Notes: generated by a model from the letters alone, not told the origin. DNA of 64,000 nt from Dehalococcoidia bacterium (GCA_964291495.2 OZ219871.1:768001-832000), one strand, 5' to 3'; shown: positions 33,956 through 49,017, counted from the stretch's first letter. Program-made: numbers and translations.

Positions 33956-34049
33956 ATCCGCTCGCCGGCGGCGCCGCGGAAGCCAACTCGACGCGACCGT
34001 CCGCCAGACGCCGGATGCGGACCTTGCCGATGGCCACGCGCGGAGCGTA

Positions 34050-35027
34050 GAGCAGATCAAGCTGGGCCTCGGCGTGGTGATCCTGCCGTACCACCATCCG
34101 GCCAGGGTTGCGGAGCGGGTCGCCATGCTGGACCACCTCTCGGACGGACGCGTGGACTTCGGAACAGGTCGTTCAGGCACCTACGAGCTCACGGGTTTGG
34201 GAGTCGACCCTCGAGACTCGCGCGGGATGTGGGAGGAATCGCTCACTATGATTCCCAGGATCTGGGATTCCGATTGGTTCTCCTGGGAGGGCCGCTACTG
34301 GAGTATGCCGCCGCGGCAGGTGCTGCCCAAGCCCTACCAGAAACCGCACCCGCCGATCTGGGTCGCCGCCCAGCAGCCGGCAACCTTCGACATCGCAGCC
34401 GAGAAGGGCATCGGAGTCCTGGCGTTGGGCTCCAGCACTCCGAGCACTCTGGAGCCCTTCGTGCGGGCATACAAGGAAAAGGTCCGGGACGCCGACCCCG
34501 TGGGCGACTTCGTGAACGACCGGTGGGCCAGCGCCACGTTCGGTATCTGTATGGAAGACAACAAGGAGGCCCGTGAGCTGGCTGCGAAGTCCATCAGGAC
34601 CTTCTTCGGCCCCGGCAAGCCGTACATCGATCAGAAGCAGGAGATCTACAAGCAGCTTCTGGAACAGTGGGGTGGTGTGCCCAATCATCTCGAGGTTGAC
34701 TTCAACAGGGTCTTGAAGGGCGAACGCAACCCCCATCTCGAGGATTCCTTCGACCTCGCAGGCGGAGGCTCGATCCACCAGTCCATGATCGAACGGCTGG
34801 ACGCCGACACACTCGCCGATCGAGCGGTAACGATCGCGGGCGACCCCGACAGTTGCATCGAGGCCTTGAAGAAGCACGAGGCCACTGGCATCGACCAGTT
34901 GATGATCATGATGCAGACGGAGACCATCCCCCACGAACAGGTGATGAAGTCGATCGAGCTCTTCGGCAAGTACGTGCTCCCGGAATTCAAACGGTCCGCC
35001 GCGGCGCCCGCGGAGGCCACGGCGTAG
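34050..35027 (+). pseudogene. LLM-class flavin-dependent oxidoreductase lacking its N-terminus
   Basis: Homology starts at EQIKLGLGVVILPYHHPARVAERVAMLDHLSDGRVDFGTGRS; PKPYQKPHPPIWVA. The N-terminal region with the EHH motif and a start codon is absent. Confidence 0.8.
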
Positions 35028-35296
35028 CCGCCTCGAGCTGATCGGGGCTCGAGAAGGTGGGGATGGCGGACGACGGATTCACGCCGGACTGGGACGCGCT
35101 GACCGAGGACGGAGCGTCAGGCGAGCTTGAGGGCGCGATCCCGCACAAAATAGGTAGAGTTGGCGAGGATTTTTCTCACCACTGCACGAACATGGGCATC
35201 GACGCTCGACATTCACAAACCTGAGCGGGCGTACGTGCCCTTCCGGAGGACGTTTGCGCGGCCAGTCAGCGCCGCCACCCGCAAGTCCTGAGGCAA

Positions 35297-35314
35297 TCTC
35301 TCTCTCTCTCTCTC
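35297..35314. repeat. (TC)9 microsatellite
   Basis: TCTCTCTCTCTCTCTCTC. Confidence 0.9.
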
Positions 35315-35494
35315 GCTGGATTGCCGGCATGACGACGTGCTCGTGCAAGTAGGGTGCGCTCCGGTTCTGCGTGGAGCTGTCTCTCTGAGCGACCGAGAAC
35401 CCGTGCGCCGCTAACCTCGACTACACTTGAGACCCCGGCTACCAGTAGCGCGTCGTGCGCTGCACCACTGGTGATCACCCACTACAGAGATGGC

Positions 35495-36607
35495 ATGCCT
35501 GTGTCCAGCGACCGTAGCGAGCCGAACGAACTCGGGTCAGTCGATATCGAGTGGGGCGTCGATATGGACACGATGTCCTTCACACCCACGGTATCCGGCG
35601 CCTCCGGTCAGGCGATCAACTACCGGGGCCGTTGCCAGGGTTGTTGGGGAAGCTTGGTTGGCAGGGTCGACGAACACCATGTCTGGACGGGGATAAGGTG
35701 CCGCGTGTGTGCGGAGACTGTCGTAGGCACGAAGGCTGCTGAGGAGGAGCGCAGGCTATCGATGGAGCTCTTTGGCAACGTCTTCAGGATGGAGTTCGGT
35801 TCGGACTCGGCCTACGAGGAGGGTCCGTTCGCCTTCAAGGTGTTCCCTAGCCTAGATCGGTTGACCGAGGAAGAACTCCGATATCGAGTCGCCGCCGCCA
35901 CTTCAAGGATTACCCGGAGCCAAGCTCGGTCTCACCTCACGAGGAAGGCGTTCCCGCTCGGTTCGGCCGGCTGGCTCTTCCTTCAAGCCAAAGTCTTGGT
36001 GTCGGGAGCGCCCGCCGAGCCTAGCCTCCGCACGCGGTTAACTGTCGGCTTTCCACAGGTAGACTTTAACGATGACGGTGCAGTTGCTGCGCGGTTTGAT
36101 ACAGCAAGAATGAGCCAAGACCCTGACTCCGACAGGCAAACTATGCTCAGTGTACTGGGGTCCAACATGCGCGATGCCATGGTGTCCGCCTTCTGTTGTG
36201 AACTCGCCATGAAGGCGATCTGCCTTACCTTCGAGGACATCGCGCCCAAGTCCCATGACCTCCATGAACTCTTCACCCATCTTCCCGAACAGAGCCAGGC
36301 TCGAGTCAAGGCAGACTACTCGGAGATTGAGGCGGTGCTCCTGAGAGAGCGACAGACTTTCGGGGCGTGGAGATACTTCGAGAGGGATTCCGAGGCCAGG
36401 GGGATGGGCGCCATGATCAATCCAATCAAGGCATCGGAGCTGAGCCGGGCCGCGAGAGTGATCCTCGACGAGGCGGAAATCATGGGCCTCAGTGGGAGAA
36501 TCTCGCTAGACACGCGACAACGAGTACAAGAAGCCCACGGATCGCGGAGGTACGACAACACAGTCGACGCAAGTGTACGGGGCACCGAGCGGCCACCTAG
36601 ACCCTAA
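35495..36607 (+). CDS. Zn-ribbon + HEPN-like domain protein
   Basis: CQGC-x17-CRVC; C-terminal AFCCELAMKA...SHDLHELF...FGAWRY pattern. Start uncertain (35495 or 35563). Confidence 0.6.
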   Translation: MPVSSDRSEPNELGSVDIEWGVDMDTMSFTPTVSGASGQAINYRGRCQGCWGSLVGRVDEHHVWTGIRCRVCAETVVGTKAAEEERRLSMELFGNVFRMEFGSDSAYEEGPFAFKVFPSLDRLTEEELRYRVAAATSRITRSQARSHLTRKAFPLGSAGWLFLQAKVLVSGAPAEPSLRTRLTVGFPQVDFNDDGAVAARFDTARMSQDPDSDRQTMLSVLGSNMRDAMVSAFCCELAMKAICLTFEDIAPKSHDLHELFTHLPEQSQARVKADYSEIEAVLLRERQTFGAWRYFERDSEARGMGAMINPIKASELSRAARVILDEAEIMGLSGRISLDTRQRVQEAHGSRRYDNTVDASVRGTERPPRP

Positions 36608-36684
36608 TCATCTCCCGATGCCCAGCTGTCGAGGCCCCTAGCGAGACTGGCCAGCAGATCCGTGTCGCGGATTGCGATCCAACG

Positions 36685-38175
36685 TCACGCTTCCAGCCAC
36701 TCGTCAGCGAGTGCCTCAGCATGCTCAGGTCTTCCCGCCAGAATGAGTCCTACAGCTTCCCGATACGGGGCGAGCGCCCCGTCCATACTCCTTGGGTGCT
36801 GGACGACTAGGCGAGCTATGTCGCCTGGCTCGAGCTTCAGTAGACCCTGCGGATATTGCCGGACCAACTGGGCCCTCGATTCGGACGTAGTTGAGGAGAG
36901 CATCGCCAGGCACCAAGCGGCCTGCTCATCAGGGCTCGTGATCCCAGGGAACCGCACACCGTAAAGCGTATTCGAGGCTGTGAGCCCCGACTTGCGATTA
37001 AGCGCCACCCAGGGCCTCGCGACCGACATGCCCGTTACGAAGCCGTCGAACGGTTCGGGGATCGGGACGCGATACCAAGGATCGCGGTCTCTGACCTTCA
37101 TGGCCTCCCGACGGCACCCGCCTTCGTCCTCAGGAAGGTCCAGGTATGCGCGAACAGCTGCGTGCGAGAGATCTTCCTCCTCCGGCCAAAAGAGCCACAC
37201 ACGCTCGCCGGCATCCCAAAGCCCAGTCCAAGCATCTTCGTCGATCTCCGAGCCGATGATGTGCTGTGCCTTGGATACGACCGGTCTGAGGACGGAGCGC
37301 GGGAGCCCGAGCGCGAGTCGCTGGGTCTCGTTGAGCAGGAAGAAACGTGCATCCCCGGTTACAGCGCCGACGCGGATCTGAGCGATTTCGCCAAACCGGA
37401 CCTGGTTTTCAGCGAGACACGACTCGGTGGAGCGCAGCCCACTACTGGTCACCGCCAAGTCGGGCGTGCAGACGGCTTGGCTTAGTGCAGACAATGTCCG
37501 ATGTCTGATCACTTGTGCTCTGCGCCGGGGCTCTCGTCCGAAACCGCGGCCAACGAGCAAGACGGAACCGTCGGCGACTGTCTCGAACATCGGGACGGAG
37601 ACGCGGTGCACGTCGAGTTCCTCGAATGATGACTCACAAATGCTCCTGAGTGGGCTGGCGTAGTTCGCGTACTCCCAGGCAGCCGGCAGGATGTAGGCCA
37701 GAGATCCGCCAGGCTTCAGCAGTCGCATGCCGGCAACGAGGAAGGCCACCCAGTAGTTGGCTGTCGCCGAAATGCCGAACCCGTCGAGTCGTGTCTCTAG
37801 GGCCGGGCGTGACAGAGCCTCCTCGAGCTCGCGAAGCCGCACGAAAGGAGGATTGGCTATAACGCGATCAAACCGCCGGTCGGTCCGCTGCGCCCAGCTC
37901 AAGAAATCAGTACCTAGCAGGTTCTCCACGCCGATGCTGTTCAGCGTAGGTAGGTCTGCCTGCAAGTCGATAGCCAAGATCGATTCGGCGGGAACACCTG
38001 CTCGAAGAACGGCGGCAATGAGCTGACCGGACCCTGCGCTCGGGTCGAGCCAAGAGGCGGCTTCTGCCGGGCCCACGGCCCGGACCAAGGCGTCGGCCAG
38101 AAGATCAGGGGTGTCCGCCATGCCCTTGTCCGGCGGGACGGCGACAGTTCGTCGTTCCCGCTCTGCGCTACTCAT
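36685..38175 (-). CDS. N6-adenine DNA methyltransferase, gamma class (Eco57I/PaeR7I-like)
   Basis: Motif I LDPSAGSG before motif IV ANPPF; LLKPGGSLAYILP; long C-terminal TRD. Confidence 0.88.
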   Translation of the reverse strand: MSSAERERRTVAVPPDKGMADTPDLLADALVRAVGPAEAASWLDPSAGSGQLIAAVLRAGVPAESILAIDLQADLPTLNSIGVENLLGTDFLSWAQRTDRRFDRVIANPPFVRLRELEEALSRPALETRLDGFGISATANYWVAFLVAGMRLLKPGGSLAYILPAAWEYANYASPLRSICESSFEELDVHRVSVPMFETVADGSVLLVGRGFGREPRRRAQVIRHRTLSALSQAVCTPDLAVTSSGLRSTESCLAENQVRFGEIAQIRVGAVTGDARFFLLNETQRLALGLPRSVLRPVVSKAQHIIGSEIDEDAWTGLWDAGERVWLFWPEEEDLSHAAVRAYLDLPEDEGGCRREAMKVRDRDPWYRVPIPEPFDGFVTGMSVARPWVALNRKSGLTASNTLYGVRFPGITSPDEQAAWCLAMLSSTTSESRAQLVRQYPQGLLKLEPGDIARLVVQHPRSMDGALAPYREAVGLILAGRPEHAEALADEWLEA

Positions 38176-38938
38176 CATCCCAGGACGCATTCCAGAGAGA
38201 GTCGAGCACGCTCTTGTTGTCGCGAACCGCCGCCAAGGCCTCCCCAAAATATCCTTCCAGCAAGTGGCTCTGGGACACTCTCAGGGAACCCGTCCAAGCG
38301 GGTTCCCGCCGGATATTCTTGTAAGCGTCTGGGTAGAACGTCGCTGCGACAAGCTCGGACGCAAGGACTAGGTCCATCGGCATATGGAGCATCCGTGGCA
38401 CGGAGAGTGCTTCCGGGAACCAATGCAGTTCATCGGGCCGCGCGTTGCCGCCGACCTGAAGGTGGTAGTGCGGACCAGCCTGGCCCGAGTTCGCGAGGTC
38501 AAAGTGAACCCTCAGCATGACACGGCCGGTGTCGGGGTTGGTCTTGTGTTCTAGAGCGGGTGCATCCCACTCCTTTCTGAAGTAGACCTGGGGCTCAAGG
38601 CTCCACACGCGTATGACGACGCGCAGATCAACCGGCCGTTCGGCCGGTTCCTCCTCCCAATAGGCGCTCAAGAAGAGGTCGACACGGACATCGAGGCCGT
38701 TCACCATCGTCTTCGCGAATCTCAGGGGGTTGTTGGGACCTATTCGGAATCCCCACGGGCGCGTTGGCCTCTCACGCCGCCCCTGCTGTTGGCTCACGTC
38801 GAACGCCTCCTTGGACTCAAGCAGCATCGACTTCGCTTGTACGATCACAGCCCCGGCGCCGTCATCGAGAATCGGTCGGAATCGGCTGTCGATGGTTTCC
38901 AGGCTCTGCTGAACCTGACCCGCGGTGATCCCCATCAA
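38168..38938 (-). CDS. Hypothetical protein with RVHFD...GPHYHLQVGG...PRMLHMPMD motif
   Basis: 256-aa ORF overlapping both neighbours; protein-like composition. Confidence 0.8.
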   Translation of the reverse strand: MMGITAGQVQQSLETIDSRFRPILDDGAGAVIVQAKSMLLESKEAFDVSQQQGRRERPTRPWGFRIGPNNPLRFAKTMVNGLDVRVDLFLSAYWEEEPAERPVDLRVVIRVWSLEPQVYFRKEWDAPALEHKTNPDTGRVMLRVHFDLANSGQAGPHYHLQVGGNARPDELHWFPEALSVPRMLHMPMDLVLASELVAATFYPDAYKNIRREPAWTGSLRVSQSHLLEGYFGEALAAVRDNKSVLDSLWNASWDDE

Positions 38939-40002
38939 ATGGCAGCCCGGATCTCTTCCAGGCGAGCCCTGCTTGCTGCCTCAACATACATTTCTTCGAC
39001 TTCATTGCTCTCGCGGATGGCTCTGAATGAGACGCGCGCTTCCTCCATTACAGGAGGTCGCGCATCCGGCTGATAGGGGAGCGAGGTTTCGATTCGGACG
39101 GGAACGCCGAGCACATGACACACCGTGTCGGCAGGACTACTGCCAGTCTCCTCGTCAGCGGACGGATCTAGCTCTAGGTCAAGGCTCTGGCCCGCAGCAA
39201 GGCGAAACCCCTCGCGCACTCCCCGTGCCGGATCTATGGATGCACACAATCGGCTCGCGATGTTGAAGAGAGAGTGCCGCCACCACCGCTGCTGCTCTTC
39301 CGAGAAGGGCCCTCGGTAGGTGGCGGGCTGCAGCAACACTTGGACAGCGTGCTGCCTGAAGCTCTCCAGCGAGATGCCAAGCGCTGTCGCTGCGTGTAGA
39401 TCGTCGTATAGGACTCCGGGATAGCGGAGAAGAACCGAGCGAAGCCAGTGGGCAACCTCGAACACTCTCCATCCGTCGCCTGGCGGTAGCGCCTCCAGGG
39501 CGTACCTCTGGCCAGCTTCATCTGTGTCGAGAAGTTCCAGCAGCGCCGACGCGGAGTGTTCCGGGGTACTACGCAGCGTTTGATACCCTCGGGCAAGCGA
39601 AACCAACCGCGCATGAGTACCGTCCGCGTCAGTCTCAAGCTCGGTGTCCTTGAACATGATGTCATCGAATGCCGCCCCGGTTAGGACGGTACGCTCCATT
39701 TGTGTCCACTTTCCAAGATTGCTTCTAGTAAGCAATACAATGGGTAAGTCCGGCTTTATCTCCCTTATTCGGGCGGCCAATGTCATCCCAAGGTACGGTG
39801 CGAAAGTTCCGTTTTCCTGTTTCGTATCCAACTCGTAATCAACAAGGAATAGATCTGCGTCGGCGTCAAGTAGAGGAGACATATCGAGATCAATCGGAGG
39901 TGCGAGAGGAATGACTTCAAAGTCACCAGCACAGATTCTCTCAATCAGCGCTGGAAGTGTAGTTCTGTCCTGATCGTCGACTAAGACTAGGTTGAACGTC
40001 AT
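38935..40002 (-). CDS. Response-regulator receiver domain + uncharacterised C-terminal domain
   Basis: LVLVDDQ, FLVDYEL (phosphoacceptor Asp), VLLT, MFK. No recognisable HTH output domain. Confidence 0.82.
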   Translation of the reverse strand: MTFNLVLVDDQDRTTLPALIERICAGDFEVIPLAPPIDLDMSPLLDADADLFLVDYELDTKQENGTFAPYLGMTLAARIREIKPDLPIVLLTRSNLGKWTQMERTVLTGAAFDDIMFKDTELETDADGTHARLVSLARGYQTLRSTPEHSASALLELLDTDEAGQRYALEALPPGDGWRVFEVAHWLRSVLLRYPGVLYDDLHAATALGISLESFRQHAVQVLLQPATYRGPFSEEQQRWWRHSLFNIASRLCASIDPARGVREGFRLAAGQSLDLELDPSADEETGSSPADTVCHVLGVPVRIETSLPYQPDARPPVMEEARVSFRAIRESNEVEEMYVEAASRARLEEIRAAI

Positions 40003-42224
40003 GAATGTCCTCTAAGCGGCGCTACGACCTCGACGGTAGTTCGCCAAGGACTAGATGATGGTACGATCTCAACATCGCCGCCCCAAGCCTCTGCCAAGTC
40101 ACGGACTATCTTAAGGCCAAGACCGGTTCCTATCCCCAAAATAGGATCTGGCTGGCTCGTGGTAAAGAAAGGTTCAAATACAACATCCCTATTCTCGGGA
40201 GGGATGCCAACACCGGTGTCATGCACTCTGAGCGTGAACGTATCCTTCGTCATTTCCGCCTCCACGCGCACCCGACGCTCTGGGACGCCCTCCCGGACTG
40301 CCTTAAACGAGTTCGTCAGAAGGTTGAGCAGTACCGCGTACATCTCGGGCTCGTAGAGAGATGGTGTGCGCACAGCTGGTGGCACCTCGTTCTCTAGAGT
40401 GATGCTGAAGTGGTCTAAGTACTTGGCGAAGCCTCGCTCCAAGTTCTCGACCAACGGACGAACGGCGCGCGATCGCGGTCGTGTACGGGCTTCCGGGGCC
40501 AACAAGAGCCCTACCAGCGAGCCCTGGTCGAACGCCATCGTTGACCAAGACCGAAGATCGTCGAGTGCTTCCTGATAGCCGTCGAGATGTTCAGGCGGCA
40601 CATGGGTCGCGAGCAGCTCAAAGGCATCGCCAATTTCTCGGAGTTGCCTTGCCATGGTGCGAAGCATGTGATCGAAGACGACCACGGTGGTGCCGGCCGA
40701 AGCGAGTACGCGCAGCATCGACAGCTCCGAGGCTTGCGCGGCTGTCTCCTGGCGGAGGAGCGCCTCGGCCTCGTCGAGGGATGTCTCGATGGCTCGCCTT
40801 GCCTCATCGGGGATGGCCGCCTCGTGAACGACCGCACTCCGCAGGGACTGTAGAGCCTGGGCCACGCTCGCAGCTCCGTCCGAGTCGCCCGTCTCCCGTG
40901 GCCGATCGCGAGCTACCGCCGCCGCCTCGCGTGCGCGGCAGACCGTCATCCAGTCGATACCGTCTCGCACGAACTGCTTGAGCTGCTGAAAGCTGTCGTT
41001 TTGGACCAGCCGATCTCGGCCGATGCTCACCGCCAAGCCGGGGTTGTTCTCCCGGGAGATGGACACGGAGCCGAACAACTGCATATTGCCCGGCAACGAC
41101 AGCATTGGTCGATCGAGCCCTCCCGCTTCCGTCTCAAGCCACTTGGGAAGTTGAGCCTGCCTCCTGGCACGCTCTTGATCGAGGTCCAGCCAGTCGTCTC
41201 CCGGCGAACCGTATGAGAATACCTGGAAGCCGTCCAAGTAGACCCTGACCCCGCCTCTCGCACGTCCCAGGTCTCTCGCTTCCCTCAGGTTGTACCCTGA
41301 GCCCCTGAAACGCCCCCCCTGGTAGACCATCATTCGGATAGTGAAGGCGACTCTATGCAGGTCGGGAAACGAGCGCTCGTGCGGTTTGTGCTGAAGCAGA
41401 ATGTCAGTGTCAAGGAGATTGAGTTCATACTGGGGTTCCCCTCGATCGGTCACCGTGCCGGTGAGCAGCGCCCAAGCTGCTTCTAGGAACGGCTCCCCGA
41501 TGGCCCCCTCGAATCTTGGAAACTCTGGCGCGAGGATCTGTACCTCGAATCCTGGGTCAGCTTCATGGTCGTGATTCCGACGTACGTACCCGCCAAGTTC
41601 ATCCAGGTTCATCAAGTCACGGAACTCAGCCTGAAGCTCGGCCAGGTCCCCTTCGGTCCAACCATCTTTGAGTCCACTAAGGCGTAGGCTCGTTCCAGTT
41701 GGAAGCTCGTCATCGAGGAGCTCACGCGTAACGCTCGATGTCACATCGGCTAGATCGCGACCAGGCTCGAAGTCCTCCCAGTTGAACTCGGCCCTGATGC
41801 GCTCGGAGCCGCCCGACACGCTTGAAGTCGATTCGAGGGACAACCGAGACGCCAGCCGTCCACATGCGAATCGCCCTATGCCCTTCGCGCCAGTCCTCGG
41901 CCTGCCGAATCGCGTCGACCGCGCGTTTATCGTTGCATCGTTCGTCGCGATCCGCATCCAGCCCCGCTTCAGGGCCTCCAGAGTCATGCCCGAACCGTCG
42001 TCGAGCACCTCGATCGAACCCCGTGGACCTTTCACGTCCTCGAAACTCACAACGACCTCGGTCGCGTCGGCGTCGTAGGCGTTCTTGAGCAGCTCAGCGA
42101 GAGCCACCGAGCGGCGAGCGACCAGCCGTTCCCCCAACTCGATGAGCAGCGCAGCGTCGACATCGAAAGCTAGGCTGGTGGTTTCGCCTTCAGGCATCTT
42201 CTGTCCAGCCCTACGCGAAGTCAT
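39999..42224 (-). CDS. MORC/MutL-like GHKL ATPase fused to a histidine kinase
   Basis: N-terminal ELLKNAYDADA, DDGSGM, GAKGIGRFA, GTS. C-terminal H-box VFDHML, NLLTNS, DTGVGI, FEPFFTT, GTGLGL. No TM segments. Confidence 0.88.
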   Translation of the reverse strand: MTSRRAGQKMPEGETTSLAFDVDAALLIELGERLVARRSVALAELLKNAYDADATEVVVSFEDVKGPRGSIEVLDDGSGMTLEALKRGWMRIATNDATINARSTRFGRPRTGAKGIGRFACGRLASRLSLESTSSVSGGSERIRAEFNWEDFEPGRDLADVTSSVTRELLDDELPTGTSLRLSGLKDGWTEGDLAELQAEFRDLMNLDELGGYVRRNHDHEADPGFEVQILAPEFPRFEGAIGEPFLEAAWALLTGTVTDRGEPQYELNLLDTDILLQHKPHERSFPDLHRVAFTIRMMVYQGGRFRGSGYNLREARDLGRARGGVRVYLDGFQVFSYGSPGDDWLDLDQERARRQAQLPKWLETEAGGLDRPMLSLPGNMQLFGSVSISRENNPGLAVSIGRDRLVQNDSFQQLKQFVRDGIDWMTVCRAREAAAVARDRPRETGDSDGAASVAQALQSLRSAVVHEAAIPDEARRAIETSLDEAEALLRQETAAQASELSMLRVLASAGTTVVVFDHMLRTMARQLREIGDAFELLATHVPPEHLDGYQEALDDLRSWSTMAFDQGSLVGLLLAPEARTRPRSRAVRPLVENLERGFAKYLDHFSITLENEVPPAVRTPSLYEPEMYAVLLNLLTNSFKAVREGVPERRVRVEAEMTKDTFTLRVHDTGVGIPPENRDVVFEPFFTTSQPDPILGIGTGLGLKIVRDLAEAWGGDVEIVPSSSPWRTTVEVVAPLRGHS

Positions 42225-42355
42225 GATGGCTGTCGCAAGACTACCTCACGGACGGCACTGCTTCTTCGCGAGCGATAATCGCTGACTTGCTCTCGCAGTA
42301 TACTCTTTGCCGTGCCTACGACCGCAGCTCCTCCCCATAGCACGAGGCATCTAGG

Positions 42356-43396
42356 ATGACGACTGCCCAAACTCAGTCCCACCTCCAGCGGCATCAGCTC
42401 GAAGCCTGGGTTCCCGACGGGCTGGGCGGGTTCAGCGATGAGCAGACCGCCATCCCGAGCATTGCCCGTGATCCCGAACTCACCGCGAGGATCTCTGATG
42501 CGGTGGAGCGTATCCCCACCTCACACCGACTCTACCTCGGTGACTCGCGCGACCTTTCGGAGATCGAGTCGGGCAGCGTGCATCTCGTCCTAACATCGCC
42601 GCCGTACTGGACACTGAAGGAATACAGGGACTCCGCTGGTCAATTGGGATCGGTCGTCGACTACGAGCGCTTCCTCTCCGAACTCGATCGTGTGTGGCGC
42701 GAGTGCTTCAGGTTGCTCGCCCCTGGGGGGCGCCTCGTTTGCGTCGTGGGCGATGTTCTGCTGTCCCGCCGACGGAACAACGGCCGGCACGTGGTCGTCC
42801 CGCTGCACGCGTCGATCCAGACCCACTGCCGTAGCCTAGGTTTCGACAACCTTGCCCCGATTATCTGGCACAAGATAGGGAACGCCGATTACGAGGCCGG
42901 CGGCGGCGGCTTCCTCGGGAAGCCGTACGAACCGAACGCCATCGTCAAGAACGACATCGAACATATCCTCTTTCAACGCAAGCCAGGCGGGTACCGGAGT
43001 CCCTCATTCGCCATGCGGCTGATGTCGGTCATTCCGGCGGAGGATCATCGAAGGTGGTTCCGGCAGGTGTGGACGGATGTGACCGGGGCCTCCACCAAGC
43101 TGCACCCGGCCCCGTTCCCCCTGGAGCTGGCAGACCGGCTGGTCCGCATGTTCAGCTTCGTCGGCGATACGGTGCTCGATCCCTTCCTCGGTACGGGCAC
43201 GACGAGCCTGGCCGCGTCGCGCAGTGGACGTAACAGCGTAGGCGTGGAGATAGCTGACGACTACCTCAACCTTGCCGCAGCCTCCTTGCGGCAAGAGGCG
43301 CTCCATCCCCACCGACGGATGGAGATTGAGGTCACCGAGCTGGGTAGCGCTAGTGCAGTCCCCGATCTCACGGATGAGGAAGTCCTGTCACCATGA
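42356..43396 (+). CDS. Site-specific DNA methyltransferase, beta class (probably N4-cytosine)
   Basis: TSPPY before HPAPFP and LDPFLGTGTT. Confidence 0.92.
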   Translation: MTTAQTQSHLQRHQLEAWVPDGLGGFSDEQTAIPSIARDPELTARISDAVERIPTSHRLYLGDSRDLSEIESGSVHLVLTSPPYWTLKEYRDSAGQLGSVVDYERFLSELDRVWRECFRLLAPGGRLVCVVGDVLLSRRRNNGRHVVVPLHASIQTHCRSLGFDNLAPIIWHKIGNADYEAGGGGFLGKPYEPNAIVKNDIEHILFQRKPGGYRSPSFAMRLMSVIPAEDHRRWFRQVWTDVTGASTKLHPAPFPLELADRLVRMFSFVGDTVLDPFLGTGTTSLAASRSGRNSVGVEIADDYLNLAAASLRQEALHPHRRMEIEVTELGSASAVPDLTDEEVLSP

Positions 43397-44328
43397 ACCC
43401 GCAGCCGCGTCCGTTCCGGGACGCCGTTGAGTACTTCTGGAGGAGCAGGAAGCGGTTCGAAGGCGACGAGAGCGTTGCATTCGCCGGCCGCCGGCAGGAG
43501 GTTGTGGGCGGCAGTCACTTCAACGAATTCCTCGCGACGCTGCGCGAACTGTTGATATCGGCCGACGTGCCGCAGGAGTCCGTGTTCTATCGCCGACGCC
43601 TTACGTTACTTCCGGGCTACTTCCGCGCCACGAAGATGTGGGACCTGCTGGTTGTTTCCGACGGGGAGCTCCAAGCGGTCGTCGAGTTGAAGGCTCAGGT
43701 TGGACCGTCATTTGGGAACAACGCGAACAATCGGGCAGAGGAGGCGTTGGGGAACGCGGTCGACCTCTGGACCGCGTATCGCGACGGCGCGTACAGCGCG
43801 AACCCCGCGCCCTGGGTGGGGTACCTGTTCTTGCTGGAGGATTGTGACGCGACTCGGCGTCCCCTCCGGACCGACGAACCTCACTTTCCCGTTCTCGGGG
43901 ACTTCCGGGGCGCCTCCTACGCGAAGCGGTATGAGTTCCTCCTCCGCCGCATGGTGATCGAGCGCCACTACTCCTCGGCCTGTCTGCTGCTGTCCGAGCC
44001 CCGCCTCGCAGCAAACGACCGTAACTACACAGAGCCCGCGCCCGACTTGAGCGCCGCTAGGTTCATCGATGGACTATTGCGCCGTTGCTCCCCGCTCGTA
44101 GGGCTAGGAGGAGCTCCATCGAAGACAGGCAATGGTGCCCTGAGGGCGGCGTCAACGATCTGGTCGCTCGGCGGAGCCTTTGTCGTCCTGCGAGAGACGG
44201 GCGTGCCCACGTCGGGAGTGTGCCAGGAGAGACTGGTGGGCGGCCGGGGCACACGTCTGCCAAGACGACTTTCGCAGGGGTGGCGGGGTACATACCACTC
44301 CGCTACTACGACGCAAGGGAGTAGATAA
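43393..44328 (+). CDS. XhoI/PaeR7I-family type II restriction endonuclease
   Basis: LPGYFRATKMWDLLV, ELKAQVGPSFGNNANNRAEEALG, PWVGY, SYAKRY. ATGA overlap with the MTase. The last ~75 aa look non-homologous. Confidence 0.88.
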   Translation: MNPQPRPFRDAVEYFWRSRKRFEGDESVAFAGRRQEVVGGSHFNEFLATLRELLISADVPQESVFYRRRLTLLPGYFRATKMWDLLVVSDGELQAVVELKAQVGPSFGNNANNRAEEALGNAVDLWTAYRDGAYSANPAPWVGYLFLLEDCDATRRPLRTDEPHFPVLGDFRGASYAKRYEFLLRRMVIERHYSSACLLLSEPRLAANDRNYTEPAPDLSAARFIDGLLRRCSPLVGLGGAPSKTGNGALRAASTIWSLGGAFVVLRETGVPTSGVCQERLVGGRGTRLPRRLSQGWRGTYHSATTTQGSR

Positions 44329-44752
44329 TGATCCCAAGGAAGAGCGCCCCGAACATCATGGGCATAATCGTCTCTACCACCGAGAGTTTCCAATACCGAT
44401 TGCTCTTAGTGCCCGCCGATTCCGGGTCCCACTCCATCGTGAAGAACTGATACGGCAAGCGCGTCTCCATGTCGTGAAGCACGCGAAACTTCTCTGTGTT
44501 GAGTTGCCGGTACGATCGGAGAACGATGTACCACGACGCCGACACGATCAGACCACAAATTCCGATCGCGAGGATCACGATGGCATCGAGCGTCCGGTCC
44601 TCGCTGAATCTGATGAGGGTTCCGAGGAATACTACGAGAGCCACAGCGATGCTGACGTGAAGTCGGTTGGCTCCTTCTCGTCGTTGACTCACGCGGTCGG
44701 TGAGCTCAGCGTGGAGCTTGTATAGGTCCACATACGTGTCGGTCTCTGTCAC
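44306..44752 (-). CDS. Small 3-TM membrane protein (RipA/octameric-membrane-protein-like), putative effector
   Basis: YKL..E.TDRVSQRR..AN, 2 TM segments, W...SYRQLN..KF..LHDME.RLP, terminal TM. GTG start overlaps the TIR stop (GTGA). Confidence 0.72.
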   Translation of the reverse strand: MTETDTYVDLYKLHAELTDRVSQRREGANRLHVSIAVALVVFLGTLIRFSEDRTLDAIVILAIGICGLIVSASWYIVLRSYRQLNTEKFRVLHDMETRLPYQFFTMEWDPESAGTKSNRYWKLSVVETIMPMMFGALFLGIIIYSLAS

Positions 44753-45159
44753 ACGAGTTCTCGGATGCCCTTGACGATGCTCTCGGTGTTCCATCCAACG
44801 ACTTTGTCAGCCGTTTCCCGCACTCTGTCCGAGATGCGTTGGTTAGCCCAGGGCCGTACGGCGAGCACCGGCTTCTCTGACGTGAAACCGTTCTTTGCGA
44901 GGTCGAGCTCAATGTTGATCCACTTGCTGTAGGTGGCATAGACGCCCGCTAAGACAACCACGACCTGACAAGGGGCCATCTGCCTGCGAATCGCGTTGCG
45001 CAGTTCGGTCTGGTTCCTCGCATTGTGAATCGGGTCCTCTGGGGGGACCGAGTAGTCTCTGAACGAGAAATAGCGCCGTCGGTCGAGGAGGTTGATGAAT
45101 CGATCGTACGAATCGCTGTGACGCCACGAGTGACTGACGAACAGATTGTATGTGTTCAC
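44749..45159 (-). CDS. Stand-alone TIR domain protein (MTH538/DUF1863, ThsB-like)
   Basis: LFVSHSW, DYSVP, VVVVLAG, SKWINIEL (catalytic Glu position), KPVLAV, VGWN. Confidence 0.88.
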   Translation of the reverse strand: MNTYNLFVSHSWRHSDSYDRFINLLDRRRYFSFRDYSVPPEDPIHNARNQTELRNAIRRQMAPCQVVVVLAGVYATYSKWINIELDLAKNGFTSEKPVLAVRPWANQRISDRVRETADKVVGWNTESIVKGIRELV

Positions 45160-45550
45160 TGCTTCTTTCTCCCGTGCCCTGCCTTGTGCCTCAAGGGTCA
45201 GTACTGCTCGGTAAGCTGCGCCAGCCGCGCCCTCGATTCCTCGATGCTCGGCGTTCGGCGAAACCGACCTGCTTCAGACAATCATGTCCTGGGGCGGAGC
45301 GCCTGCCCAATCCCGTCTGCCTCATGGGTCGCAGTCTCCCTGAATGGACAGCCAGCCACAATCACGGCCTCCACCAATGCCACCGGGTCACGGGCGCACG
45401 ATGGCGCTGCTCCCGACCCATCTAGACGCCCTGCGGGCCCAGCCATGCTGGATATCCCGCGAGGACATCCATGGCACGCAAGAAGGCTGCCGCACATCGA
45501 AGGAGGGGAGGGCACCGCCGTCGGCGATGCCCTCCCTCTTGCGTGTCGGG

Positions 45551-47791
45551 CTAGCCTCTCTCGCCGACCCGCTCCGCCTCGCGCTCCCGCTTCAGTGCCC
45601 ACTCGAACAGGGAGAGCGTTGGGGCTTCGTCCCGGCGCTTGCGCGGCGGCTCCTCCGGCTCCGCGGCCATGAACTCCGCCCACGAGAACAGCGTGCGCTG
45701 CGGCCCCGAGTCCACGATAGCCTCGACGGCCACCGTGTCCGCGACCGGCTCCGGCTCGGGCGCGTGCCAGCCCTCGTCGACCAGCAGCGCCTCGGCCTCA
45801 GCCGCGACCTGCCGCGCCTGCTCGAAGAACGACTCGACCGAGCCGGCCTCCTCCTCGCCCGCGACGATCTTCCTCGCCAGGGCGATCAGGAGGTCGTCAC
45901 CGTCGTCCCCGTAGGCGGCGAGGCCGTCCTCCGGCAGCTCCCCCTCGACGGCGAGCGACGACTGGAGCTTCTGCGCCACGAGCTTGAGGGCGTCGGCCTG
46001 GAGGGTGTTCCGGTAGGCCATGAAGACGACCTGGACGGGCTCGCTCTGCCCGATCCGCCAGGAACGCCGTGACGCCTGCCGCATGGTGTAGACGGAGTAG
46101 TCCGTCTCGTACCAGCAGATCGTCGGGAACTCCACGAGATCGAGACCCGTCTGCACCAGCCGCGGGTGGCAGACGAGCACGTCGACGCCCTCCTCGACGC
46201 GCTTCGCCACCCACGCCTCGCGGCGCTCGGGCGGCACCGCGTCGGCCTTCATCACCGCGACCCGGAAGCCGTGGCGGGAGAGGAACTCCTCCATCCGCCC
46301 GGTGATGTCGCGCGTGCCCGTGTGCGTGGCGTAGACGAGCACCCGGCGTCCAGCCAGCCGCTCGGCGGCCACGAGGTCGACGAGCGCCCGCTCCTTCGGG
46401 TAGAGCCGGTCCTCGGGAAGCGGCGGCACCTGCACGAGCAGCTCCTCCGACTCCGGGTCGAAGACGGTCTCGCCCTGCGTGCAGCCGTCGGGGTAGGCGA
46501 GCAGCGTCTGCAGGTAGGTGGCGAGCAGCCGCCGCGAGCCCTTCGAGAGGGCGTCGGCGAGCGCTGCCCTGAGCGCCCCGTAGAGCTCGTCGTAGCCCGC
46601 GCGCTGCGAGAGCCCATTCCCGTCCGGCTCCGTATCCATCGAGGAGAGCAGCACGCGCTCCTCGTAGGGCGGAAGGCCCGAGGCGACGTCGGAGAGCCGC
46701 AAGAAGACGCTGTTCCCGATGAGGTGGAAGAGCGCGGCGGGGGCGAGCCCCGGCCGCTCGCGCACCACCTTGCGGTAGCGCTTGCGGCGGCTCGTGCGCC
46801 CGTCCTCGAAGGAGTCCGGGTCGTCTTTGCCGATGGTGTGCTCGACGAAGCCGTAGCGCTCGATCCAGCGGCTCTCCTCGGAGCGCCCGAACTCCGTGCG
46901 GATCTCCGGGCTGAACCGGTAGAGCAGGTGGAAGAGCGTCGAGGAGTAGCCTCCCATCAGGGTGCCCGAGAGCGAGAGCGACTTGCCGCAGGCGTCGGCG
47001 AGGACGCCGGCGGCGATGCCCTGGGCGGAGCCTCGCGCCTTGAACTCGTGGACCTCGTCGCCGATCAGCAGCTCGAAGAAGCCCCTCAGGCGGTGCTTCA
47101 CGTAGTCGCTGAGCGGGTAGCGCTTCGGTCCCGAGTTGTCGGCCTGCCAGAGGGCGGAGCCGCACTCGCCGCAGGTGCGCTTGCGGCGGGCGAGGTCGCG
47201 GCCAAGCAGCGGGACGCCGTCCTTGTCCACGACCTGCTCGTGGCAGTCCGGGCAGCAGGGCACCCGCAAGGGCTCGCCCGTCTCCTCGTCGCGCACGAGC
47301 CGGCCGCCGGACGTGGCCCAGCGCTGCACCACGGCGGGCTGCCAGCGGTACGAGAGCTTGGCGCGCTCGCGCGACATGATCGCGAAGAGCGGACCGGGGC
47401 CTGCCATGGCGCGCAGGCGCTCGAGGTCGGTGATCGAGGCGACGATGACGGCGCGGGCGCCGGGCACCGTCTCCTCGACCTCGCGCTTCCACTTGCGGGT
47501 CAGATGCGGGGGGCAGAGCACGAGCACCCGGCGGAAGCCGGCCATGTGGGCCGCCGAGGCGGCGATGAAGGTCTTGCCTGTGCCCATCTCGCCGACGACC
47601 GTGGTGCCGCGCTGCGCCTCAAGCGAGAGCGCCGCGCCGCGGATGGCATCGGCCTGCGCGCCCAGTGGGGCGCGCAGCAGGCGGGGGAGTGGGCGGCCCT
47701 GCTCCGAGGGCCGGTAGCGGGGCGGGTAGGACTCCACCACCCGCCGGGCGATGGCGTCACGGTAGGTGTCGATGAATTCGGCCAGGTCCAT
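45551..47791 (-). CDS. SF2 (SNF2/DEAD-like) helicase with Zn fingers, ICE backbone
   Basis: GEMGTGKT, DEVHE, LSGT, TGLDL, QASRRSWRIGQ; CPDC/CGEC. Confidence 0.9.
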   Translation of the reverse strand: MDLAEFIDTYRDAIARRVVESYPPRYRPSEQGRPLPRLLRAPLGAQADAIRGAALSLEAQRGTTVVGEMGTGKTFIAASAAHMAGFRRVLVLCPPHLTRKWKREVEETVPGARAVIVASITDLERLRAMAGPGPLFAIMSRERAKLSYRWQPAVVQRWATSGGRLVRDEETGEPLRVPCCPDCHEQVVDKDGVPLLGRDLARRKRTCGECGSALWQADNSGPKRYPLSDYVKHRLRGFFELLIGDEVHEFKARGSAQGIAAGVLADACGKSLSLSGTLMGGYSSTLFHLLYRFSPEIRTEFGRSEESRWIERYGFVEHTIGKDDPDSFEDGRTSRRKRYRKVVRERPGLAPAALFHLIGNSVFLRLSDVASGLPPYEERVLLSSMDTEPDGNGLSQRAGYDELYGALRAALADALSKGSRRLLATYLQTLLAYPDGCTQGETVFDPESEELLVQVPPLPEDRLYPKERALVDLVAAERLAGRRVLVYATHTGTRDITGRMEEFLSRHGFRVAVMKADAVPPERREAWVAKRVEEGVDVLVCHPRLVQTGLDLVEFPTICWYETDYSVYTMRQASRRSWRIGQSEPVQVVFMAYRNTLQADALKLVAQKLQSSLAVEGELPEDGLAAYGDDGDDLLIALARKIVAGEEEAGSVESFFEQARQVAAEAEALLVDEGWHAPEPEPVADTVAVEAIVDSGPQRTLFSWAEFMAAEPEEPPRKRRDEAPTLSLFEWALKREREAERVGERG

Positions 47792-47979
47792 GGTGTGTGT
47801 CTCCTTCTCCTGTGAGGGACGACACCGGGTCCTGGACGCACTACCCCCATCCCCGTGCAGCAGGGGAAGGTTGAGTGTAAGAAGCCATGGAACCGTCCCC
47901 CTTTCTGTGGTCGGTGCGAGGCCCGCCGCTCCGGTAGGGGAGACGGCGGGTCTCGTGTGAGTGCCGCTCGTGCGAGCGG

Positions 47980-49017
47980 TCAGGCGGCGATGTCAGTGAT
48001 CTCGCCGAGATCGAGGTCGAGCGCGACGACGGTCGTGCGCAGCCGCTCCCGGTAGACCTCCTTCGCGCGCGTGGTCTCGACGAGCAGCATCTCCTTCGAG
48101 GTGCGGCCCTTCACGAGGATGCGCCCGTCCTCGCCCTCGAGCTGGAGGTTGTCGAGGAAGCCGGCCGCCACCAGCATCGCCAGGTGCCCGCGCCGCAGCG
48201 GCATGAGCGGCCTGGTGCGCTGGTCTTCCGCCGGCCAGAGCGCGTCGGTGACGGTCGTGCTGACCCAGAGCCCGGAGCGGCGCGACTCCTCGGCCGCCGC
48301 CACGGGGTCGACCGTGCGGGTGGCGAAGAGCACCTCCCCGTCCGCCGTCGCTGGGGCGTTGTAGACCGGGTAGCGATGCGGGTGCAGCTCATCGAGGTTC
48401 CCCTCGATCGCCTCCTGCAGCGCCACGGCCGCGTACTGGTCGTACATCGCCTCCGCCTTGCGGATGCCGGTTACGACCACCTGGTCGAAGGCCTCGCGCT
48501 CCGGCTCGGGGAAGGCCCAGACGCGCAGGCTCCGGTAGTGCGAGGCGAGGTAGCGGGCGCACTCCGCCAGCCGCCGCCTGGGCACCACGAACACCAGCAG
48601 CCCCTGCTCGCAGAGGTAGCGCGTGCAGTGCCGGAGGAAACGCATCTCGACGCGCTTCTCCTCCTCCCCCGAGTCATCGTCGTACGGCGGGTTCAGGTAG
48701 AGCAGCCCGAAGGCCCCGTTGGCGATCGCGGTCTGGAAGAGGTCCGTGCCCAGCGCGTGGTCGAGGCGCGCTTCCGCTTCCTTGGCGCGCTCGGCGTGGA
48801 GCTCCACCCCGAAGGTCTCCACCGAGGCCCCGTCGGGGCGCCCGATGCGCGAGGCGAGGTCGGCCAGCGCCTCCCCGGCCCCGCAGCAGGGGTCGAGGAT
48901 GCGCAGCGTGGTCTCGCCCCGCGTGACCGTGCGAGCCTGCATGAGGCTCGCGACCAGCTCGACGACCCGAGGCGGCGTCGGGTAGAAGCCTCCCTTGAAC
49001 TGCGCGGCCAGTCTCAT
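47980..49017 (-). CDS. Class I SAM-dependent (m6A) methyltransferase, DUF6094-like
   Basis: GFYPTP, LDPCCGAG, YLNPPY, RPLMPLRRGHLA. Confidence 0.85.
   Translation of the reverse strand: MRLAAQFKGGFYPTPPRVVELVASLMQARTVTRGETTLRILDPCCGAGEALADLASRIGRPDGASVETFGVELHAERAKEAEARLDHALGTDLFQTAIANGAFGLLYLNPPYDDDSGEEEKRVEMRFLRHCTRYLCEQGLLVFVVPRRRLAECARYLASHYRSLRVWAFPEPEREAFDQVVVTGIRKAEAMYDQYAAVALQEAIEGNLDELHPHRYPVYNAPATADGEVLFATRTVDPVAAAEESRRSGLWVSTTVTDALWPAEDQRTRPLMPLRRGHLAMLVAAGFLDNLQLEGEDGRILVKGRTSKEMLLVETTRAKEVYRERLRTTVVALDLDLGEITDIAA

Follow-up and report, generated by a model that had tools for sequence, protein, structure and literature searches.

The 64,000-nucleotide stretch of a Dehalococcoidia bacterium genome analyzed here (GCA_964291495.2 OZ219871.1:768001-832000; hereafter the window, whose positions are used throughout unless a related locus is named) carries a minus-strand cassette of four genes. 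These encode a predicted GHKL ATPase-histidine kinase, a response-regulator-like protein, a protein of no recognizable family and an Eco57I-type DNA methyltransferase. This four-gene cassette is real, self-contained, widespread and uncharacterized. It stands back to back with a plus-strand XhoI-family restriction-modification pair, and all six open reading frames (ORFs) lie within a low-GC stretch of the window (~34000-45500; GC 0.55-0.64, compared with ~0.71 in the flanks). A check of the ORFs places all six genes, the 131-bp spacer and its palindrome exactly where a first-pass annotation, made from the sequence alone, had put them. The features are as follows.

36685-38247, minus strand: gene 4, 520 amino acids (aa) as the longest ORF, an Eco57I-type gamma-class N6-adenine DNA methyltransferase with a C-terminal target-recognition domain

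38168-38938, minus strand: gene 3, 256 aa (255 aa from the ATG at 38935), no recognizable family or fold

38935-40002, minus strand: gene 2, 355 aa, response-regulator-like, with a receiver (residues 1 to ~147) and a conserved domain of ~208 aa

39999-42224, minus strand: gene 1, 741 aa, a soluble protein with a MORC/MutL-like GHKL ATPase domain, a conserved middle region, a DHp helix carrying His519 and a histidine-kinase catalytic domain

42225-42355, no strand: divergent spacer, 131 bp, with the palindrome AGTATACT at 42297-42304 and the inverted repeat AGCGAT/ATCGCT at 42271-42283

42356-43396, plus strand: beta-class amino-methyltransferase, 346 aa, the XhoI partner, a neighbor outside the cassette

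43393-44328, plus strand: XhoI-family type II restriction endonuclease, 311 aa, a neighbor outside the cassette

The cassette genes are tightly packed. Genes 1 and 2 meet in an ATGA overlap and genes 2 and 3 at a TGATG junction, which becomes a 4-nt overlap with the TTG start. The gene 4 ORF runs into gene 3 by 80 nt when taken at its longest and by 8-11 nt from an ATG at 38178 or 38175; one of these two ATG codons is probably the true start, since relatives align only from residue 11-23. The XhoI endonuclease gene and its methylase gene likewise overlap by 4 nt. A hydrophobic segment is present in none of the four cassette proteins.

Gene 1 combines two GHKL domains in a single chain, with Pfam matches to HATPase_c_3 at residues 40-135 (2.9e-21) and to HATPase_c at residues 627-738 (4.1e-28). 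Across 17 aligned relatives the N-terminal Bergerat motifs are invariant (Glu44/Asn48/Asp51, Asp75/Gly77/Gly79 and Gly112/Lys114/Gly115/Gly117), and the ExxxN, DxGxG and GxxGxG motifs by which MORC/paraMORC GHKL domains are recognized are all present. The same alignment shows no substitution of His519, which lies in a predicted DHp helix (17 of 17 relatives). The kinase core likewise retains intact, invariant N, G1, F and G2 boxes (Asn638, D669xGxG, F683/F686 and, at G697, GTGLG, with the GxGTGxGL motif invariant). Profile comparisons align positions 511-715 with the histidine kinase HK853 (2c2a; 5e-19) and positions 33-99 with MutL (9n2k; 7.5e-7), and the region between the two, residues ~190-480, is itself conserved. 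The N-terminal ~170 residues, which comprise the GHKL domain, are also similar to the BbrUII/HgiDII type II restriction enzymes (NCBIfam NF050001, 4.8e-17, although at 61.7 bits the score is far below the 550-bit cut-off; PADLOC REase_II PDLC03419, 2.9e-11). Only this N-terminal domain is held in common with those enzymes, whereas the remainder of gene 1 is a histidine kinase and not a nuclease.

The protein of gene 2 has no Pfam match in its own right, and PF00072 is matched weakly by 12 of 30 members of its family. Its fold is clearer: in an AlphaFold (AF2) model with a predicted local distance difference test (pLDDT) score of 85.4, residues 1-152 adopt a receiver fold (VIA-align Z 15.7, root-mean-square deviation (rmsd) 3.1, 131 residues aligned), and Foldseek returns TMt values up to 0.79, for the MtrA receiver. 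Among 30 sequences Asp55, Thr92 and Lys118 do not vary and Asp10 hardly does. Judged by these residues, gene 2 is a competent receiver and not a pseudo-receiver. Between them, the two proteins hold the kinase H, N, G1, F and G2 boxes and the receiver acidic pair, phospho-acceptor Asp, Thr and Lys that a two-component pair requires. The C-terminal ~208 residues of gene 2 are strongly conserved and rich in invariant Pro, Trp, Arg, Asp and Cys, and a stretch at residues ~200-227 reads, by eye from the alignment, like a helix-turn-helix (HTH). Gene 2 has 141 relatives, nearly all of them unnamed and of ~355 aa. Residues 148-355 gave no usable match in a protein atlas, the match lists for the whole gene 2 model in fold searches are taken up by receiver domains, and sequence and profile searches of the Protein Data Bank (PDB) with genes 2 and 3 yielded marginal matches only, the best being the response regulator 3a0u (E 0.044).

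Gene 3 is without a match in Pfam, PADLOC, NCBIfam or PDB sequences. Its AF2 model is confident (pLDDT 92, predicted TM-score (pTM) 0.89) and resembles no solved structure. Foldseek against the PDB found nothing above background (best E 0.34), and VIA-align placed none of 48,161 chains at Z of at least 5; the best of them, at Z 4.7 and rmsd 3.7, covers 48 residues of a helical hairpin only, where a best Z of 7-8 is typical of models that lack a clear match. A search of the predicted viral structures in BFVD was similarly empty (best E 0.075). The family is nonetheless large: a profile search of 1.84 billion representatives recovered 1,109 clusters, defined at 50% identity, at E<=0.001, and 139 at E<=1e-30. 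The best 150 of the 1,109 are mostly stand-alone proteins of ~250 aa. The conserved core reads R139..R143.H145.D147 ... H159.Q.GG ... E170 ... P181-R182. Conservation among 141 diverse members is 100% for His159 and Gly163, 99% for Gly164, Pro181 and Arg182, and 89-96% for Arg139, Arg143, Asp125, Asp147, His145 and Glu170. This pattern would fit a catalytic or phosphate-binding site. One protein, P0293 (608 aa), is a natural fusion of the two families, with gene 2 at residues 1-360 (hhalign probability 100) and gene 3 at residues 379-604; it is the sole representative seen to join them. A prediction of the gene 2 and gene 3 complex from family alignments scored 0.00, which weighs neither for nor against binding. 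One candidate assignment of gene 3, to DUF2290 (PF10053), came from an atlas feature score of 0.89 to a cluster with that family in 15% of its members; it was rejected, with none of 28 aligned family members matching at E<=10.

Gene 4 matches Eco57I (PF07669, 1.6e-11) and the PADLOC model MTase_II (6.8e-49), while its match to M_Eco57I_C (9.6e-06, 25.6 bits) falls just short of the 27-bit cut-off. The NPPF motif is positioned after the AGSG motif. The methylase on the plus strand matches PF01555 (N6_N4_Mtase) at 6.6e-36 and 124.8 bits against a cut-off of 26.7 bits; here SPPY precedes FLGTG, and an SPPY motif is commoner among N4-cytosine than among N6-adenine methylases. The endonuclease beside it matches XhoI (PF04555, 5.1e-69, 232 bits against a 25-bit cut-off; PADLOC REase_II, 6.4e-75), so that an XhoI-family endonuclease and an adjacent DNA methyltransferase, the components of a type II system of this family, are both in place. 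That gene 4 might serve as a second methylase for XhoI was considered and rejected: gene 4 belongs to the cassette and XhoI has its own methylase. The gene-level assignments of the first-pass annotation stand after these searches. It had described a soluble protein with two GHKL domains and an H-box, a receiver with intact DD/D/T/K residues, a 256-aa unknown, a gamma methylase, and a beta methylase paired with a XhoI-family endonuclease. Its label of 'non-HTH' for the output domain of gene 2 is the exception, being unconfirmed in view of the HTH-like stretch. It had also remarked on the oddity of one endonuclease served by two methylases, and this oddity disappears because the gamma methylase is the cassette's own.

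The cassette recurs well beyond this genome. A pattern scan of one genome per species, keyed on gene 2, found 21 related loci (numbered with an L below) in Chloroflexota, Acidobacteriota, Desulfobacterota, Planctomycetota, WOR-3, Pseudomonadota and three methanogen metagenome-assembled genomes (MAGs). The kinase gene lies directly upstream of the receiver gene on the same strand in 19 of 21 (L013 lacks it and L015 is cut by the contig end), and gene 3 lies directly downstream of gene 2 in 19 of 21 (L006 is cut and L013 lacks it). Of the 18 loci long enough to show it, 17 have an Eco57I-type methylase beside gene 3, the exception being L015, where a N6_N4 methylase with a MerR-type HTH takes its place. 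All-against-all clustering of every ORF in the loci revealed no other recurring gene. These neighborhoods bear out the earlier proposal that the four minus-strand genes form a conserved unit, their order being kept in most of the 21 loci. The XhoI endonuclease and its methylase, by comparison, accompany the cassette in 1 of 21 loci (L002), and in that locus two transposase genes (of DDE_Tnp_1 and IS1595 types) interrupt the methylase and the endonuclease is broken between two frames, next to a cassette that is intact. No XhoI pair was present at the seven plasmid loci inspected. Conservation of the cassette is thus independent of the XhoI pair. L013 differs from the rest in that its receiver-like protein (L013:8001-9053) is the only one found without kinase, gene 3 or methylase; its neighbors, large Hsp70-like, GrpE-like and double-zinc-ribbon proteins, suggest recruitment to a different system.

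Gene 1 also matches 90 plasmid records, and more distant versions of the cassette stand on plasmids of cultured organisms. Representative gene orders are as follows.

Hymenobacter plasmid NZ_CP014303.1 (L024, 222-5859): kinase, 367-aa protein, 289-aa protein, N6 methylase

Halomicrobium plasmid NZ_CP044130.1 (L023): kinase, 'response regulator', gene-3-like ORF, divergent N6 methylase

Paraburkholderia plasmid: HTH gene, Eco57I-type methylase, kinase, 355-aa protein, 225-aa protein

Rhizobium plasmid: divergent methylase, kinase, 376-aa protein, 235-aa protein, GIY-YIG nuclease

Burkholderia and Pseudanabaena plasmids (L025, L027): kinase, shorter receiver-like protein (~228 aa), metallo-beta-lactamase (MBL)-fold hydrolase in place of the gene 3 family

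The annotation 'response regulator' for the short receiver-like protein applies to Burkholderia only and not to Pseudanabaena, in which an IS982 transposase interrupts the hydrolase gene. Gene 3 found no plasmid match by tblastn at E<=0.001, and its plasmid relatives were detected by profile comparison (hhalign) only, with a probability of 97 in Hymenobacter and 96 (E 5e-9) in Halomicrobium; gene 2 homology in Hymenobacter has a probability of 96.7. The Halomicrobium relative of gene 3 is a 269-aa ORF directly after the 'response regulator' (L023:10382-11191) that is absent from the listed annotation. The Rhizobium comparisons are weaker (probabilities 40 and 56), and the method fails for the third genes of Paraburkholderia and Clavibacter and for the Burkholderia receiver. 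Phage records gave partial GHKL matches only. The source genome (3.08 Mb, 93.7% complete) holds one copy of the cassette, and gene 2 was not found in the 60 other related genomes searched, 18 of them of the same genus. This patchy, island-like distribution, in which the dip in GC is combined with absence from relatives, points to horizontal acquisition.

Within the island of the window, the cassette is accompanied by the XhoI pair and by a gene for a ThsB-like TIR protein. The flanks of the related loci hold 111 ORFs with a length of 200 aa or more, and 95 of these were scanned with PADLOC; the other 16 were four in L002 that had already been identified, the five convergent methylases, six in L013 and the L015 methylase. 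Clear matches were as follows.

L004 flank: type IIG restriction-modification

L005 flank: type I restriction-modification and HEC-01

L009 flank: type III restriction-modification

L012 flank: PDC-S05

Weaker matches were seen in the flanks of L011, L017, L018 and L019, and the other scanned flanks had none. The placement of the unit among defense genes in the first-pass annotation is in keeping with the XhoI pair, the TIR gene and the restriction-modification genes of some related loci.

Several further neighbors were observed. At the right edge of the island, two overlapping minus-strand genes (44306-45159) encode a 136-aa ThsB-like TIR protein (PF08937, 2.2e-16; PADLOC ThsB, 3.7e-10) and a 162-aa membrane protein of the 8xMP family (PF24838, 5.5e-33) with a strongly hydrophobic segment (KD19 2.34). 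They may constitute a small defense pair of TIR protein and membrane effector; no ThsA-type gene was seen. To the left of the cassette, a plus-strand ORF of 417 aa (35354-36607) has a marginal HEPN match (E 0.033), otherwise no family, and no counterpart among the 21 related loci. Just beyond the island, where GC is normal, a SF2 helicase-like gene (ResIII and Helicase_C, both weak) is followed on the minus strand by a DUF6094-family methyltransferase gene (8.6e-30; together 45551-49017), and these may be another DNA-modification or defense pair. Among the relatives, the Hymenobacter cassette (L024) directly adjoins a gene with a Piwi domain (prokaryotic Argonaute-like) and a gene for a 1,118-aa DNA methyltransferase.

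Systems that couple DNA methylation to phosphorylation are already familiar. Pgl/BREX type 2 and MADS label self DNA with a methylase and use protein phosphorylation in the restriction arm, but the kinases are of the Ser/Thr type, many more genes are involved and there is no His-Asp relay. The logic resembles that of the cassette without family membership: of the MADS models only MAD2 is touched, by gene 4 and at domain level only (NCBIfam, 11.6 bits against 720; PADLOC mad2, 1.9e-14 over part of the protein), and BREX-6 PglX is matched at 9.2 bits against a 900-bit cut-off. Detocs resembles the cassette in that a histidine kinase and a receiver-effector protein serve phage defense and not gene regulation. 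It comprises a TPR sensor kinase, a buffer receiver and a nucleosidase effector, and has neither a methylase nor a GHKL sensor. Only restriction or methylase models of PADLOC match the cassette, in a library version for which inclusion of Detocs models is unsure.

The closest precedent is the computational study of Bellieny-Rabelo, Pretorius and Moleleki (2021; PMC8011034). It defined one family of kinase-like proteins (HATPase_c_3 + HEF_HK + HATPase_c) and another of receiver-like proteins (Response_reg_2). Their genes are linked in 91.6% of 644 regions, with an enrichment close to restriction-modification genes, mainly C5 methylases and Vsr. A regulatory role was speculated there, and an origin from paraMORC ATPases proposed. 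The likeness to the present cassette is substantial: a soluble kinase of HATPase_c_3, DHp (with its core His) and HATPase_c, an adjacent receiver-like protein whose C-terminal part, as in gene 2, has no known domain, a methylase nearby and a restriction-modification neighborhood. There are also differences. PF19192 (Response_reg_2) is matched at E<=10 by none of 30 aligned members of the gene 2 family and none of five further locus-derived sequences, PF19191 (HEF_HK) by none of seven family kinases at the same threshold, and neither has a match in the window's own genome; the only approach to HEF_HK is that of the distant Paraburkholderia plasmid kinase, whose score (0.0079, 17.1 bits) stays below the cut-off of 24.1 bits. 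PF19192 was also not found in 401 sampled genomes of the window's phylum, where control genomes were equally blank, so that this result says little. The methylase emphasized in PMC8011034 is a C5-cytosine enzyme with Vsr, whereas that of the cassette is an Eco57I-type N6-adenine enzyme, and the Results and Discussion of that paper report no third gene, Eco57I-type methylase or archaea, although the unnamed orthologous groups of its Fig. 1 may hold a counterpart. The novelty first claimed for the locus is not supported in that form. A kinase/receiver pair of the same architecture beside restriction-modification genes had already been described in that source, and the locus thus partly matches a known system, as the first-pass annotation had said would count against it; the present proteins match neither Pfam model.

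Iyer, Abhiman and Aravind (2008; PMC2292703) had earlier placed paraMORC/MORC GHKL ATPases in operons with DNA methylases and proposed an ATP-driven DNA clamp or looper acting in restriction. Those operons share with the cassette an N-terminal GHKL ATPase with intact ATP-binding motifs and DNA methylase genes. As given in the portions of that paper considered here, they include no receiver, two-component element or kinase fusion, and they carry helicases and recognizable nucleases, both of which are without counterpart in the cassette. No experimental study of such a cassette was found in the literature searched, which covered few subscription journals, in agreement with the earlier statement that its mechanism has no established account.

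We lean, with some reserve, toward two separate systems standing back to back in a horizontally acquired low-GC island, namely an ordinary XhoI type II pair (42356-44328) and an autonomous, mobile four-gene operon for methylation-based, phosphorelay-driven defense (36685-42224). The cassette probably defends against foreign DNA; this role, the direction of signaling, the sensing of methylation status and the identity of the effector are what we infer from the gene set and its conservation. The Eco57I-type methylase would mark host DNA at N6-adenine, and the MORC/MutL-like GHKL ATPase of gene 1 would clamp or scan DNA. An encounter with unmarked DNA would turn on the fused kinase core, His519 would autophosphorylate, and the phosphoryl group would pass from His519 to Asp55 of gene 2. 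Phosphorylated gene 2, together with gene 3, would then execute the response, most likely by cleaving DNA or otherwise blocking the invader. The effector would be either the C-terminal domain of gene 2 or the novel-fold gene 3, which probably cooperate. Hints as to what fills this slot come from the MBL-fold hydrolase that follows the receiver in Burkholderia and Pseudanabaena, from the GIY-YIG nuclease gene that follows the 235-aa protein in Rhizobium and from the resemblance of the gene 1 GHKL N-terminus to the BbrUII/HgiDII restriction enzymes. A more specific proposal is possible but doubtful: that this is the first defense system to relay methylation-based self/non-self discrimination through a classical His-Asp phosphorelay, common to bacteria and archaea, in which a MORC-like clamp detects unmethylated DNA and phosphorylates a receiver that switches on a nuclease or some other effector, in either case of an entirely new fold (the 256-aa HxQxGG protein).

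A number of observations weigh against a defense operon of this kind. No nuclease or other effector domain is recognizable in the four proteins by Pfam, PADLOC or NCBIfam searches, and the known and candidate defense models of PADLOC match neither gene 2 nor gene 3, and gene 1 only via its GHKL N-terminus. The role of gene 3 is a guess because it has no known fold, and the HTH-like stretch of gene 2 is as compatible with a transcription factor as with an effector. Co-transcription of the methylase is not universal, as 12 of the 17 Eco57I-type methylases are co-directional with the cassette and 5 of 17 are convergent (L007, L009, L011, L014 and L021); L010 and L021 carry frameshifted copies; and with clear defense genes in about 5 of the 19 scanned flanks the genomic context is anecdotal.

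An alternative is a regulatory two-component system, in which kinase and receiver form a transcriptional switch that times or tunes the methylase or neighboring restriction genes, much as controller proteins do, with no dedicated restriction arm. The HTH-like segment and the want of a recognizable nuclease domain are what such a switch would lead one to expect, and a role of this sort was speculated for the related family in the Discussion of PMC8011034. As for the spacer, one 8-bp palindrome (AGTATACT) in 131 bp is about the chance level, ~0.5 such palindromes being expected by our own arithmetic, and a consensus sigma-70 scan found no site in 42225-42355, its promoter and terminator counts being no different from those of shuffled sequence. 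In favor of a switch, L002, the one comparable divergent locus, has an otherwise diverged spacer in which a block around the palindrome is retained, and this two-sequence comparison is suggestive of a shared promoter or operator. A simple switch would, however, have no need of the conserved MORC-like ATPase or of the third protein, whose invariant Arg, His, Asp and Glu look enzyme-like; related cassettes place an MBL hydrolase or GIY-YIG nuclease in or after the gene 3 slot, and 20 of 21 loci lack an endonuclease gene to regulate. We regard this account as rather unlikely. Still less probable is a non-defense function, whether an epigenetic or chromosome-organizing module (a phosphorelay-controlled methylase and MORC-like DNA compactor) or an addiction module for stable maintenance of the mobile element that carries it. 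Plasmid and island sites beside toxin-antitoxin and transposase genes would suit it, as would the lack of an identified nuclease and the action of eukaryotic MORCs on chromatin (cited in PMC8011034), but patchy spread over two domains of life and frequent restriction-modification neighbors are typical of defense genes.

The model put forward in the first-pass annotation, that all six genes form one signaling-gated restriction-modification system whose phosphorelay controls the XhoI-family endonuclease, fares worst and is very improbable. The 131-bp divergent spacer is common to both units, and the back-to-back layout and conserved spacer block recur in L002. Against this, the XhoI pair is absent from the 20 other loci and from the seven inspected plasmid loci, it already owns a methylase, and in the single locus where it does recur it has decayed beside an intact cassette, with two transposase genes and a frame break.

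Returning to the methylation-based defense operon that we favor, the cassette offers an accessible entry to a family of broader interest. Prokaryotic MORC-like ATPases are the presumed ancestors of the eukaryotic MORC chromatin silencers, and to our knowledge how they read DNA marks is not known. In the present cassette the ATPase is wired directly to a histidine kinase, and the state of the sensor should therefore be readable as phosphorylation, a tractable assay. Gene 3 represents a large family (~1,100 clusters) with a confidently predicted structure unlike anything solved. The cassette is compact (four genes, ~5.5 kb) and widespread, culturable bacteria carry it on plasmids, and the PADLOC library searched does not contain it, all of which makes it well suited to a standard phage challenge. 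If the defense reading is true, the His-Asp relay would be a third signaling chemistry in methylation-based immunity, beside ATP-driven restriction motors and the Ser/Thr kinases of Pgl and MADS.

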